64,000 bases of DNA, taken from the NCBI GenBank assembly GCA_044892525.1, contig CM097885.1:22446001-22510000 (forward strand). Reading direction: 5' to 3'. A program made the translations under genes and the position numbers. Of this stretch, positions 25,401 through 28,400 are shown one piece after another (positions within the stretch are counted from its first letter, which is position 1; each line of letters starts with the position of its first letter). The DNA comes from Schmidtea polychroa (lineage: Eukaryota). The notes under the pieces are model-generated. The model was not told the origin of the DNA and did not search any database. It saw only the letters and a list, made by a program, of their open reading frames with translations.

Positions 25401-28400
25401 AAAAAATACATTTTGTAGTTGTGGAACATTTGAACTGGTTGTACCATTTCTTTTGGTTTTTCGGTGCTTGAAATTTTCTTGGTCATCGTGAATAATGAAT
25501 AAATTGAAATGTTACAGGGTTTTTATACCTTTGACTCATGTCTATCAACCAATCAGATTACAGCATGTCTTTGTTTCAAATTGCATTCAAAATGCATTGA
25601 TGTTGCATTGTCACATGTTTTGTTATATGTTCTATTTACAGATTTATTATTTATGTGTTTTATTATTAATGTTTTAATTATTACATGTTTTGTTATATGT
25701 TCTATTTACAGATTTATTAATAAGGTGTTTCATTATTATTATTAATGTTTTTTTTTTTTACTATTATTTCTATTATTATTACTATTCATATTTCTATTAT
25801 TACTATTATTATTTCTATTATTATTTCTATTATTATTATTAATATTATTATTATTACTATTATTTATTACTATTTCAAATATAAAAAACACAACAGATAC
25901 AAAAATACATTTATTCATATCCAAGATCTACAATCCGGGAGTAGTGAAACCTTCGCAGAGTTTTCACTAACTCCCATTCGACATATCGCCGATATCGATC
26001 GGCACAGCATGAGCATCCGATGATGCACTGGTACTCTGGCTCCATTTGTTTGATGCTTCTGTTTATCTTAAGATCCCACAAGAACTGGTGAAATACCTCC
26101 ATTATTCTAATTTGTGTTGTGTAGAAAATGAGGTCTGGAATTATTTCTGCTTCTCTATCCTTGATAATTTCATTGATTTGCGGATAATAATATTTTATCC
26201 TGTTGATCATAACTTTGATATATTTTTCTAAAATAATAAATAGTAAATAATGTGAAAATAAAAATTTTAAATTTACCGGAATCGTCAATATCCTTCATGA
26301 GGGTTGCAGAGCTTGGTATTTTGTACATAGTGAAAAAATGAATTCTAAACAAAAAACCGTTTGTTTAAATCAATCAATAACCAATTAGAAATTAACCAAT
26401 TAAAAATCGACCAATGAAATTATCTCATTTCGAACATTGTCAACAAATTCTCTATACTCCAAATTTCTCAACCCCAACATGACAACCTTTCCACTAGCAA
26501 ACACGTTGACACATATAGGGTTATATTTTATTAGTCTTAGTGCCGGAAACAATTCCGGTTCAAACATACAATCACATTTTTTCGACATGTTATATAGATT
26601 GATACTATGTCCCATATCCATAGTAACGGTAATTGATTGGATTTTAATATTATTTATTCGATATTGTAATTTATTAATATCCAAAGGTTTCTTACATCCC
26701 ATGATTCGGCATTTACCAGTCTTGAAAAATATTATCGGATATTTCCCGCTTCTATCGATAATTTGCTGAGGTTTCCCTGGTGGGAACCTCATATTCGATA
26801 CATCAAAATTTCCTCGATAATTTATATTTGCTAACATTATTAAATCATTTATGAAAATTAGTCTTTATATACAAATTGAGCATGAGTTCATTAAATCATC
26901 GAATATAAACAAATACACATTTATAAAATCTTTGAAATGGAATTAAGAAATGATGCAGTATACCAAATCGTTGGTCCGAGTGGTAGTGGAAAAACATTAT
27001 TTGTTTGTAAATTACTAAAATCAAATTTATTCAAATCAAAATTCAACAGGATTTATTGGCATAGGGGTGCTGATGAAGAACATGGATTAACTCAATCAAG
27101 TTTCTGTAAATTAAAAAACATGAAAATAGTAAAGGGATTCGATAAAAACTGGTCCAGCCGATTAAAGAAAGGTGATGTCATTATTATCGATGATTTGTAT
27201 CAAGAAGCTAATAAAGAAAAAGATTTTAATAATTTATTTACAAAGATCAGCAGACATGTCGGTGTAACAGTTATTTTCATAACTCAAAATCTATTTCATC
27301 AAGGTGGGGCACATCGAACACGTAATTTAAATGTACAGTATTTAGTCATTTTCAAGAATCCTAGAGATGCAACAGTGATTGATTTTCTTGCACGTCAAGC
27401 ATACCCTAACAATCGTAATTTTCTTATCAGTGCATTTCAAGATGCTACAAAAATACCTCATGGATATATATTTCTTGATTTCACACAACAATGTCCCGAT
27501 GATTTACGTGTAAAAACAGATATTTTCAACCCAAAAGGTGCCATAGTTTATAAACAAAGTTGAAAACCTCTATGAATAATAATGTTTCTAAAAGCAAGGG
27601 TGAAAAATATTAGGAAATTAAGAAAAGGTATTAGAAAGACTATTAAAGTTCCAAAAGTTCCACCAACAACTAGTTATACACCATCTAAAAAACTTGTAAC
27701 TGAAAATTTCTCTGCAATGAATCTTATTTCGAAAAATCCTAAACCTAAACGTAAAACCCGTAAAACCCGTAAAACCGGTAAAAAAGTAGTTAAAAATCAT
27801 CGCAGTTTTCCATTTTTTAATGCATTGTTAAAGGCCCCGAGTATGAAAAGAATGAATATATTGCAATCATTCCCAAATTTTGTTGTCGATGATTTACTCA
27901 ATATTATACTTAAAGTAGTCAAAGGCAAAATTAAAATCAGTAAATCAAAAAAGCATTAATTGAGCAAACATAGGAAACCATTGTTATCTTTAGTAAATAA
28001 TAAAAATCGTAAGCAAATGAGAAAAATTATATATAAACAACAAGGTGGATTTATTGGTGCATTAATACCTCTGGCATTATCATTATTAGGTGGAGTTGTA
28101 GGAAATCAATCATAAACAATGGGTGCTAATCCTTCATTGCCCGACATTAAATTTAATTTTAAATCTTCTTGTTGTAATGGAGAAGATTTGGACGAACCCA
28201 GAAGACGAAGCCGGTTTCGGTGGAGTGGCAAAATTAAACAAAAGAGTTCCGAATTCGAAAAAAGAAACCCAGAAGTGGTTATCAGATCAGCTTGCGTACA
28301 GTTTGAATAAACCAATGCGGAAAAGATTTCCAACAAGAGCGTATAAAACATTTGGTATTGATGATTTATGGCAAATGGATTTGATGGAGATGATACCTTA

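Follow-up and report, generated by a model that had tools for sequence, protein, structure and literature searches.

What would a Maverick element do with a TATA-binding protein (TBP) of its own? Mavericks and Polintons lack an RNA polymerase, we know of no account of how they time replication against virion gene expression, and whether they still act as viruses in animals is debated. The 64-kb window, the whole stretch of DNA analysed here, holds a miniature TBP-like gene that faces a packaging ATPase gene. New here are a conserved compact TBP family, its helix-less first repeat, its long branch from cellular TBPs, and a YATAAAC promoter class. A conserved element-encoded TBP-fold factor and a motif class confined to morphogenesis genes make a concrete, testable regulatory circuit.

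The host element and its genes

The carrier is a Maverick/Polinton (adintovirus-like) element, as the initial annotation had proposed from the sequence: terminal inverted repeats (TIRs), a target-site duplication and hallmark genes all identify it. TGTGTG stands at both flanks of 22172-41693 as a 6-bp target-site duplication, and the two TIR arms, 1.2-1.8 kb long, are 96-99% complementary. The TBP-like gene lies inside these bounds and is thus element-borne, and very many near-identical copies of the element carry it. The features are:

22172..41693, whole Maverick/Polinton-type element, 19,522 bp, termini AGTAGG...CCTACT
22172..23416, left TIR, with internal tandem repeats
around 23906-23919, divergent pair of accessory ORFs, 165 aa and 103 aa
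25076..25486, minus strand, OB-fold protein of 136 aa, SSB-like, resembling viral gp2.5-type ssDNA-binding proteins
26400..26837, minus strand, compact TBP-like gene, 145 aa, intact ORF from ATG to stop (Pfam PF00352; AlphaFold model)
26838..26936, divergent spacer of 99 bp between the TBP-like gene and the ATPase
26937..27563, plus strand, packaging ATPase, A32/FtsK-type, 208 aa (Pfam Pox_A32, 30.4 bits against a cut-off of 22.8)
27582..27959, plus strand, basic ORF of 125 aa
starting at 28119, plus strand, small ORF beginning MG..., before the integrase
28177..29268, plus strand, probable integrase, 363 aa (rve core, weak chromodomain)
29214..30287, plus strand, 357-aa ORF, conserved beside the integrase in relatives; at a guess, a minor capsid or penton protein
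30274..30645, plus strand, 123-aa ORF
30642..31862, plus strand, probable double-jelly-roll major capsid protein, 406 aa (Atlas clusters; Pfam in a relative)
31847..32275, plus strand, adenain-like cysteine protease frame, 142 aa stop to stop (Peptidase_C5, 27.2 bits against a cut-off of 21.3)
35246..38512, plus strand, family-B-type DNA polymerase, 1088 aa (phrog_1907, E 2.2e-20)
39921..41693, right TIR

The hallmark set comprises an A32-type ATPase, which the annotation had rightly named as the neighbour of the TBP-like gene, a probable integrase, an adenain-like protease, a DNA polymerase and a probable double-jelly-roll capsid gene. The integrase matches Pfam rve at E 1.1e-5 (26.0 bits, under the 32.6 cut-off), with weak rve_3 and Chromo matches, and contains a 23-residue poly-isoleucine run encoded by an (ATT)n tract; homologues at 33-63% identity adjoin the ATPase in relatives. 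Assignment of the capsid gene is probable. The Atlas clusters closest to it, with a score of 0.98, include PF21738 (DJR-like) in 65% and 24% of their members, which serves as a lead only; Pfam Capsid_N matches 1 of 11 relatives (E 0.0079), and a Pfam search with the 406-aa protein of the window itself gave no match. In the window copy of the protease frame, no ATG precedes the matched region. The polymerase has homologues, 32-51% identical, beside the TBP-like gene in metagenome loci; searches with the window protein found nothing among Pfam polymerase families at E <= 0.01 and no matching sequence in the PDB. ORFs within the left TIR are probably not genes.

In relatives, the TBP-like gene often has the 136-aa SSB-like gene beside it. 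We considered the 136-aa protein as a TFIIA/TFIIB-like partner and ruled this out: its model is an OB fold nearest to viral ssDNA-binding proteins. An Atlas search with this protein found nothing.

A compact protein with the TBP fold

Judged from profile and model, the product of 26400-26837 is a true TBP-fold protein, in line with the original TBP-like call. The Pfam TBP profile matches two stretches of the ORF and scores 57.4 bits, well over its cut-off of 22.9 (E 1.3e-15), and all 35 sequences found by phmmer in the PDB are TBPs or TBP fusions (best 2z8u, 3.9e-11). An AlphaFold (AF2) model reached a pLDDT of 96.1 and a pTM of 0.84, and each of its 44 Foldseek matches at E <= 0.001 is a TBP. 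The model superposes on the whole TBP core: VIA aligned 145 of 145 residues with yeast TBP 66-240 (Z 13.2, rmsd 2.4 A), and across 38 TBP entries Z ranged from 11.1 to 13.2, with 140-145 residues aligned over model residues 1-145. The best non-TBP matches, rolling-circle initiators, reached Z 6.4. The fold comparison with PF00352 that the annotation had proposed, run here through Pfam, AlphaFold, Foldseek and VIA, therefore predicts a TBP fold.

The description of the protein as two-repeat holds with a reservation. Repeat 2 (about residues 62-145) is a complete TBP repeat with a FEPELFPAL stirrup; repeat 1 (about residues 1-50) consists of strands only in the AF2 model, both helices, H1 and H2, being absent. 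Alignments agree, hhalign placing a 13-residue gap at the H2 position of repeat 1 and MAFFT placing deletions at H1 and H2. Cellular TBPs have the S1-H1-S2-S3-S4-S5-H2 topology in both repeats, and the 145-aa protein does not. It amounts to a natural minimal TBP, one full repeat joined to a bare beta-sheet half, and bears on TBP asymmetry and on how half-site reading evolves.

Residue roles were assigned from a MAFFT alignment at about 25% identity and from background on TBP structures. At what we take to be the DNA-kinking positions, three of the four phenylalanines are kept: F38, F97 and F113 align with TBP Phe positions and are invariant in the family. The first stirrup Phe of TBP has no counterpart in this alignment, where it falls in a 3-residue deletion, and on the same alignment the compact protein lacks the full two pairs of Phe seen in cellular TBP. 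Within the stirrup, E93, E95 and F97 are invariant and P94 and P98 occur in at least 90% of rows. R44 and M46, also invariant, lie on strand S5 where TBP has DNA-facing Val and Thr, and Ser68 replaces the Asn of TBP in S1 of repeat 2. The alignment of 39 sequences has 18 invariant columns in all. That the DNA-facing residues of repeat 1 are altered yet invariant suggests that specificity was changed rather than retained.

Loss of the helices also bears on the second suggestion of the initial annotation, a dominant-negative TBP. Such a decoy would occupy TATA boxes or titrate TFIIB-type factors without initiating, silencing host genes or the element's own late genes. The convex, helical surface of TBP is where cellular partners and regulators bind, and loss of both repeat-1 helices removes most of it, which fits a decoy. 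The EPELFP stirrup, the surface of TBP that contacts TFIIB, is nevertheless strictly conserved, as one would expect if it made productive contact with a TFIIB-type factor; an element with many intact copies would hardly be expected to carry a toxic general inhibitor so constantly; and the dedicated YATAAAC class described below would go unexplained. We consider a decoy quite unlikely. Complex prediction for the compact family with the host TFIIB-like core scored 0.01, which gives no answer and speaks neither for nor against contact.

Set beside cellular TBP, the compact protein shares the whole-core fold, the complete C-terminal repeat, most of the kinking phenylalanines and a stirrup, EPELFP, nearly the same as the host's YEPELFPGL. 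It differs in length (145 aa against about 180), in identity, which is only 22-28%, and in being encoded by a mobile element and falling outside the host TBP clade. A second cellular comparison is TRF2/TLF (TBPL1), a diverged paralogue of TBP that serves promoters lacking a canonical TATA box; an intronless TLF-like gene with ELELFPAL is present in the host. TRF2, however, keeps the full two-repeat helical architecture and is not known to have the intercalating Phe, of which the Maverick protein keeps three, and the Maverick protein does not group with the host paralogues in our tree. Giant viruses and mirusviruses also encode TBP folds and supply the best BFVD matches, such as Heterosigma akashiwo virus at E 1e-8; one report gives TBP in 59% of mirusvirus genomes (PMC10132985). 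Those proteins are full two-repeat TBPs of 190-500 aa from large genomes, many with their own RNA polymerase.

Conservation, synteny and origin

The gene is intact in the genome and recurs well beyond it. Of 4174 first-look candidates in the genome, 150 places were scored, and every one encodes a protein 99-100% identical, with no stop in the frame. Of 113 candidate relatives, 109 have E <= 0.001; these span 37-97% identity and all carry PF00352. Metagenome contigs supplied 175 relatives, and the number of representative proteins found by a profile search was 60 at a threshold of E <= 1e-30 and 659 at E <= 1e-10. Relatives as distant as 37% identity share the compact architecture and start position. 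Where a locus offered 1.5 kb of flank or more (44 loci), the gene was accompanied in 31 by homologues of the ATPase, integrase, capsid or polymerase genes of the window. The survey of other Mavericks that the annotation had called for finds the compact gene usually beside ATPase, integrase and capsid genes, and these comparisons place it as common in one Maverick (adintovirus-like) clade rather than a one-off.

Could it be a captured TBP fragment in decay, without present function? The protein is short and half of the secondary structure of repeat 1 is gone, as such a passenger might show, but the architecture and start persist across the family, the scored copies all keep open frames, and 8 of 8 subfamily loci have the gene although their left arm varies. 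The copies compared show 0-4 changes in the ORF, all silent, with only 4 in copies that have diverged by about 4% across 3.4 kb, a weak point against decay because the copies were picked by protein score, which makes the comparison too biased to count as evidence of selection. This explanation is disfavoured, and we give it very little weight indeed.

The head-to-head arrangement with the ATPase, part of the original claim, is present in the window, with the two genes 99 bp apart, and in all eight further loci of the same genome, which were hand-picked rather than random. It is a local variant, however: in 16 of 25 metagenome loci with at least 1.5 kb downstream, the TBP-like gene lies upstream of the ATPase and points the same way. 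The eight same-genome loci also reveal a seam. Their ATPases are 84-97% identical to that of the window and their TBP-like proteins 53-63%; across subfamilies the values are about 95% and about 54%, with a sharp identity break at the 99-bp spacer. On these identities the spacer is the junction of a variable left arm with a conserved morphogenesis arm, and the break shows that a regulatory and replication arm and a virion arm are swapped as modules.

The proposed phylogeny against host TBP sets the compact family apart. A quick tree with midpoint rooting separates it (48 rows) from cellular, host and IMG/VR TBPs (9 rows) by a long branch with SH-aLRT support of 99 on both sides; the family does not group with eukaryotic TBPs, and recent capture from host TBP is ruled out by this division. 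An IMG/VR profile search gave one locus, a full two-repeat TBP at 26% identity that groups with cellular TBPs, and an IMG/VR search with the capsid profile gave no relative.

The annotation's view that TBP lies outside the canonical Polinton gene set also stands: no description of it as a standard Polinton gene appeared in the literature searched. That search covered the text and legends of work on Mavericks, Polintons and adintoviruses with a TBP or a late promoter motif, and found only a 'TBP' gene label in a figure legend of Starrett et al. 2021 (Virus Evolution, PMC8502044) for MELD viruses whose PolB is adintovirus-like, a paper that also reports accessory genes in such elements. Any link to the compact family is by label alone, and the paper gives no account of the gene's architecture, distribution or promoter.

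Two putative promoter classes and a candidate late switch

The spacer between the TBP-like gene and the ATPase is exactly 99 bp long and carries TATA-like motifs on both strands, as annotated. Promoter motifs in and around it are:

23906..23919, minus strand, CCAAT module ATTGGTTGATAGAC then a TATA box, in the divergent promoter of the 165-aa and 103-aa accessory ORFs
25540..25553, minus strand, CCAAT module ATTGGTTGATAGAC then TATAAAA, upstream of the SSB-like gene
26863..26871, minus strand, canonical-type TATA box TATATAAAG, 34 nt before the TBP-like ATG
26904..26912, plus strand, TATAAACAA, of the YATAAAC class, 33 nt before the ATPase ATG
26922..26928, plus strand, TATAAAA, in the 99-bp spacer
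27549..27557, plus strand, TATAAACAA, before the 125-aa basic ORF and 33 nt from its ATG, within the ATPase coding end
28032..28040, plus strand, TATAAACAA, upstream of the small MG... ORF (28119) and the integrase, with an extra CATAAAC at 28111
30173..30181, plus strand, TATAAACAA, before the 123-aa ORF and 101 nt from its ATG, with an extra TATAAAC at 30218
30600..30608, plus strand, TATAAACAA, before the probable major capsid gene and 42 nt from its ATG

Five copies of TATAAACAA fall on the sense strand within 26904-30608, whereas chance would give about 4 in all 64 kb, both strands counted; the window total is 7 against 4.06 expected, a count that 11 of 100 shuffles reach and that is not significant alone. 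At the ATPase motif, 7 of 7 subfamily copies that were aligned share ATATAAACAA unchanged.

Among non-redundant relatives, all of them elements carrying the TBP-like gene, YATAAAC stands upstream of the ATPase in 21 of 24 windows, of the capsid gene in 5 of 6 and of the integrase in 5 of 15, against a background of 3.0%. The TBP-like gene has it in 0 of 49 windows and instead shows TATAWAWR in 21 of 49 (background 5.3%). An unbiased 6-mer scan ranked ATAAAC as the top word, in 37 of 52 late-gene windows against 4.1%; p-values on all these counts are overstated, since the loci are related, start codons were assigned by rule and YATAAAC was first spotted by eye. The motif occurs in different reading frames and in non-coding DNA, which indicates a DNA-level signal, and it is present where no co-directional gene lies upstream, which argues against a poly(A) signal. 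From these patterns the element has two putative promoter classes, canonical TATA and YATAAAC.

The split by gene set bears on the possibility that the protein is a general TBP substitute or booster, binding both classes alike and raising initiation, or sustaining it while host TBP is scarce or blocked, without distinguishing early from late genes. A TBP-like C-terminal repeat with most of the phenylalanines, a TATA-like core common to both classes and a spacer holding both kinds of motif all fit this. The classes nevertheless divide sharply between the TBP-like gene and the ATPase, and the altered, invariant residues of repeat 1 suggest changed specificity, so we regard a booster as unlikely. 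Motif placement weighs on another proposal, that the TBP fold serves outside transcription, bending or marking the element's DNA so that it can be replicated by protein priming or packaged by the ATPase. Conserved adjacency to that ATPase, the frequent SSB-like neighbour and the rolling-circle initiators that rank next among structural matches speak for it, but YATAAAC occurs in neither TIR, the expected place of replication or packaging signals, and lies directly before ORF starts. We think this very unlikely.

An analogy comes from beta- and gamma-herpesviruses, in which late structural genes carry a variant TATT motif that is read by a viral TBP-like protein (vTBP): EBV BcRF1, KSHV ORF24 and HCMV UL87 (PMC4893493, PMC7162547). 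There too a DNA virus that uses host Pol II has a TBP-like protein; the parallel here, as an analogy only, is a variant TATA-like motif, YATAAAC, before the ATPase, capsid and integrase genes and not before the TBP-like gene. The herpesvirus proteins differ in being large and working in a six-protein complex, their motif differs, and their BFVD structural matches to the compact protein are weak (BcRF1 E 1.9e-2, U58 E 6.1e-3), far below those of giant-virus TBPs. By this analogy the 145-aa ORF, an intact gene and a standing component of one Maverick/Polinton clade, may encode a vTBP-like initiation factor for a late promoter class, a reading we hold to be evenly poised between right and wrong. 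The YATAAAC class lends indirect support to the annotation's first suggestion, a viral TBP that may redirect host Pol II to late capsid genes.

In such a vTBP-like scheme, host machinery would transcribe the TBP-like gene from its canonical TATA promoter, along with genes for replication and accessory functions, the SSB-like gene among them. The TBP-like product would bind the variant YATAAAC(A) ahead of the ATPase, integrase and capsid genes, where the well-kept C-terminal repeat and EPELFP stirrup would nucleate a Pol II pre-initiation complex on morphogenesis genes. The remodelled repeat 1, with no helices, one stirrup Phe lost and R44/M46, would set an altered half-site preference, and the same remodelling would put the factor out of reach of host regulators that hold TBP by its convex surface. 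Against this scheme, TATAAAC has TATAAA within it, and host TBP alone might therefore bind many of these sites; the motif also lies only 23-45 nt before several ATGs, which would leave almost no 5' UTR if it acted as a -30 element. The full two-tier programme in an animal-type Maverick clade is a more tentative proposal, which we think rather more apt to be wrong than right: early genes, some with the CCAAT module and including the mini-TBP and SSB-like genes, would be read through host TBP at canonical TATA boxes, and the mini-TBP would then read YATAAAC(A) through its helix-less repeat 1 with R44/M46, so that host Pol II expressed the packaging, integrase and capsid genes free of control by the regulators of host TBP. 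Were two-tier reading true, this would be the smallest known natural TBP and a Pol II late switch in the Polinton lineage, independent of the herpesvirus one.

The CCAAT module that the annotation had noted at other accessory genes is real, an exact ATTGGTTGATAGAC with a TATA box occurring at two sites upstream of three accessory ORFs. It is also absent where the annotation said it was, neither CCAAT nor ATTGG lying inside the spacer at 26838-26936. As a general promoter feature of TBP-like relatives we reject CCAAT, which is not enriched in their upstream windows (10 of 49 against a 14.6% background). Three ATTGG words do occur at 26381-26415, upstream of the next minus-strand ORF.

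A TBP-fold protein encoded by a Maverick

A Maverick in this window carries a gene for a TBP-fold protein that is conserved beside morphogenesis genes, and the genes of such elements fall into two promoter classes. The features concerned are as follows.

22172-41693: element, 19,522 bp, bounded by inverted repeats
22172-23416: left inverted repeat, 96-99% complementary to the right arm, with internal tandem repeats
39921-41693: right inverted repeat, 96-99% complementary to the left arm, with internal tandem repeats
25076-25486, minus strand: 136-aa ORF, OB-fold model, no Pfam family
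26400-26837, minus strand: TBP-like ORF, 145 aa (Pfam TBP)
26838-26936: 99-bp spacer between the TBP-like gene and the ATPase
26937-27563, plus strand: Pox_A32-type ATPase (Pfam score 30.4 bits, cut-off 22.8)
31847-32275, plus strand: adenain-like protease frame (match to Peptidase_C5 at 27.2 bits, cut-off 21.3)

The name Maverick is correct, given the repeats, target duplication and gene set. The termini read AGTAGG...CCTACT with TGTGTG outside both, a 6-bp duplication, and the ATPase and protease are accompanied by an integrase (rve, E 1.1e-5, under Pfam's cut-off) and a DNA polymerase (phrog_1907, E 2.2e-20). A 406-aa ORF (30642-31862, plus strand) encodes a probable capsid protein; as no more than a lead, the clusters closest to it in the Atlas (score 0.98) are of the double-jelly-roll type. 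As initially annotated, the spacer joins the TBP-like ORF to the ATPase and lacks the CCAAT module of the accessory genes. Neither CCAAT nor ATTGG occurs within 26838-26936, and the module, ATTGGTTGATAGAC followed by a TATA box, lies at 23906 and 25540, 5' of three accessory ORFs.

Sequence and predicted fold both identify the product as TBP-like, and the initial annotation was right on this point. The ORF scores 57.4 bits against PF00352 (cut-off 22.9, E 1.3e-15) in two stretches, and all 35 PDB sequences matched by phmmer are TBPs or TBP fusions (best 2z8u, 3.9e-11). We modelled the protein with AlphaFold (pLDDT 96.1, pTM 0.84) from alignment A1, which joins it to 38 of 109 relatives chosen by eye for spread and contig size. 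The model superposes on yeast TBP 66-240 over 145/145 residues (VIA-align Z 13.2, rmsd 2.4 Å; best non-TBP Z 6.4), and Foldseek against the PDB returned 44 matches at E <= 0.001, 44 of them TBPs.

The description as a two-repeat TBP holds for the second repeat, which is complete in the model (S1'-H1'-S2'-S5'-H2'); the first consists of strands only. Against a host TLF-like protein, hhalign places a 13-residue gap at the helix H2 position of repeat 1, and MAFFT with cellular TBPs places deletions at H1, the first stirrup and H2. Invariant in A1 are N4-I5-N6 (strand S1), F38 and F113, C43, R44, M46 and G47 on strand S5 of repeat 1, and E93, E95 and F97 of the stirrup, whose P94 and P98 are shared by 90% or more of the rows. 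R44 and M46 align with a Val and a Thr of TBP that we take from crystal structures to face DNA; Ser68 aligns with a TBP Asn.

Lineage, gene order and module exchange

Relatives of the protein are widespread. A word-indexed search found 109 (96-232 aa, 37-97% identity, PF00352 in all), a JGI metagenome scan 175, with 80 loci retained, and an exhaustive profile search 3184 proteins at E <= 0.001 (cellular TBPs among them), 659 at <= 1e-10 and 60 at <= 1e-30. IMG/VR held no close relative of the element's TBP-like or capsid protein. Other subfamilies in the same genome (L112, L113, L114) end in short acidic-hydrophobic tails such as ...EDLLEYLFNND and ...EFLDFLLSLN, and some metagenome relatives (P0118, P0122, P0125, P0143) in long S/T/Q-rich ones; the window's 145-aa version has no tail.

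The gene is an old lineage of its own, as a tree split supported at 99 on both sides indicates. In a quick maximum-likelihood tree (57 rows, 158 columns, SH-aLRT support, midpoint root, exon-split host genes L102-L104 excluded), that branch separates 48 compact-family and variant rows from all nine cellular, host and IMG/VR rows. Besides a canonical TBP split by introns, the host has at least five paralogues, which cluster with eukaryotic TBPs (support 97). Recent capture from the host is ruled out by the same split.

At loci that encode relatives of the protein, the gene recurrently lies beside morphogenesis genes. Searching by tblastn with the window's own proteins, we found ATPase, integrase, capsid-block or polymerase homologues at 31 of the 44 loci flanked on one side by 1.5 kb or more (IMG/VR locus counted). 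The usual order is TBP-like gene, ATPase, small basic ORF, integrase, 357-aa ORF, 123-aa ORF and capsid gene. Because the ATPase is downstream and co-directional at 16 of the 25 loci whose downstream flank reaches 1.5 kb, the head-to-head pair is a local variant. It recurs in 8/8 further same-genome loci chosen by differing frame lengths, whose ATPases are 84-97% and TBP-like proteins 53-63% identical to the window's. The identity break between the arms falls in the spacer of aligned same-genome copies; the left arm is therefore swapped as a module, always keeping the TBP-like gene.

Copies are very numerous in the 781-Mb host genome (1012 contigs). One rival reading makes the gene a dead passenger; at all 150 places scored, from 4174 first-look candidates, the protein is 99-100% identical and free of stops. 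Twenty copies over 3.4 kb, including the window's own locus, are 95.6-100% identical to the window.

Two promoter classes and their likely use

Putative late genes (ATPase, integrase, capsid) and the TBP-like gene carry different upstream motifs. In the spacers of seven aligned copies, ATATAAACAA is invariant about 30 nt 5' of the ATPase ATG. There are five sense-strand copies of TATAAACAA within 26904-30608, among them one 33 nt 5' of the ATPase ATG, one 33 nt 5' of that of a 125-aa basic ORF (27582-27959, plus strand) and one 42 nt 5' of that of the capsid gene; its whole-window count (7 against 4.06 expected) is by itself not significant, and it is the clustering that stands out. We counted motifs in non-redundant 70-bp windows 5' of relatives' genes, excluding matches beginning past query residue 12, loci with <70 bp upstream, locus L021 and windows >80% identical to one already retained.

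Variant (YATAAAC) and canonical (TATAWAWR) TATA motifs in upstream windows
ATPase: YATAAAC 21/24; TATAWAWR 5/24
Capsid gene: YATAAAC 5/6; TATAWAWR 0
Integrase: YATAAAC 5/15; TATAWAWR 0
TBP-like gene: YATAAAC 0/49; TATAWAWR 21/49
Background: YATAAAC 3.0%; TATAWAWR 5.3%

An unbiased 6-mer scan returned ATAAAC as top word in late-gene windows (37/52, background 4.1%), and TCATAA and AGTATA/TATAAA in TBP-like gene windows. Related loci and rule-assigned start codons inflate the p-values; the contrast between gene sets is large despite this. YATAAAC sits in differing reading frames and in non-coding DNA, and spacer copies retain it where no co-directional upstream gene exists, which argues against explaining it by coding constraint or as a poly(A) signal.

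Most likely, the TBP-like protein would be expressed from a host-type TATA promoter, alongside replication and accessory genes including its 136-aa neighbour, would next bind YATAAAC(A), and would then use its C-terminal half, the TBP-like one, to recruit TFIIB and Pol II. In TBP complexes the C-terminal repeat lies on the 5' half of the TATA element and the N-terminal repeat on the 3' half. Here the motif's 5' half is TATA-like and its 3' half has an invariant C, and the protein's C-terminal repeat is TBP-like and its N-terminal repeat remodelled; this parallel is suggestive, not evidence. Rival readings cast the protein as a general TBP substitute, a decoy, or a DNA bender for replication or packaging. 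The initial interpretation is plausible in proposing redirection of host Pol II to late capsid genes; its alternative, dominant-negative action, belongs with the rival decoy reading.

TBP homologues were already known in large viruses, as first annotated: the model matches giant-virus proteins in BFVD. Mirusviruses encode a TBP-like protein in 59% of genomes (PMC10132985), and a TBP-like late factor of beta/gamma-herpesviruses reads TATT (PMC4893493, PMC7162547). For Polinton-type elements, the one TBP mention located in the partly accessible literature is in a legend (Figure 5) by Starrett et al. (2021, PMC8502044), in keeping with a place outside the canonical gene set; one supplementary text file of that study had no match to the TBP label. 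The same portion of the literature nowhere described the compact architecture, how widely it occurs in this Maverick clade or the YATAAAC class, which are what appears new beside the known virus-encoded TBP-like proteins.

Neighbouring genes

The 136-aa protein is probably the element's replication SSB, judging from its model. The ORF often adjoins the TBP-like gene, with homologues in 20 metagenome loci, and the predicted OB fold (pLDDT 91) best matches viral ssDNA-binding proteins: ASFV CP312R (Z 7.5), DUF2815 (7.2), Enc34 SSB (6.9), T7 gp2.5 (6.8) and baculovirus LEF-3 (5.6).

The host genome (G000) also holds a multi-copy, intronless TFIIB-like gene (301-304 aa) at C1:23.85-24.19 Mb and C3:38.2-39.1 Mb (L126-L128). 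Its product combines two cyclin repeats with a zinc ribbon and resembles human TFIIB (E 1.9e-33). The near-identical copies number at least 11, some ~7.9 kb apart in a tandem-array-like pattern; Maverick polymerase fragments lie near 2/3 examined copies, in no fixed arrangement.

Several smaller features accompany the element. In the integrase ORF (28177-29268, plus strand) an (ATT)n tract reads as 23 consecutive isoleucines mid-protein. Overlapping its start in a different frame, a small ORF (28119-28310, plus strand; MGANPSLPD...SSCC), whose first codons are kept at the DNA level in L057, L031, L065 and L022, could encode either a different N-terminus for the integrase or a small protein in its own right, possibly myristoylated. 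The protease frame overlaps the capsid gene end and, in the window copy, has no ATG 5' of the matched region; this copy of the gene may be damaged. Tandem repeats and microsatellites fill about 2.7 kb (32300-35000) between the protease and the polymerase, which in metagenome relatives L029 and L033 lies ~0.7-1 kb past the capsid gene on the opposite strand. The CCAAT+TATA module is the predicted promoter of a 103-aa accessory ORF (23981-24292, plus strand) whose match to the Bcl-2 family (E 0.028) stays below threshold, at 15.4 bits where the cut-off is 31.4. Just beyond the right end, a DUF659 (hAT-transposase-related) ORF (41848-42378, minus strand; E 2.2e-23) represents another mobile element or a host gene.
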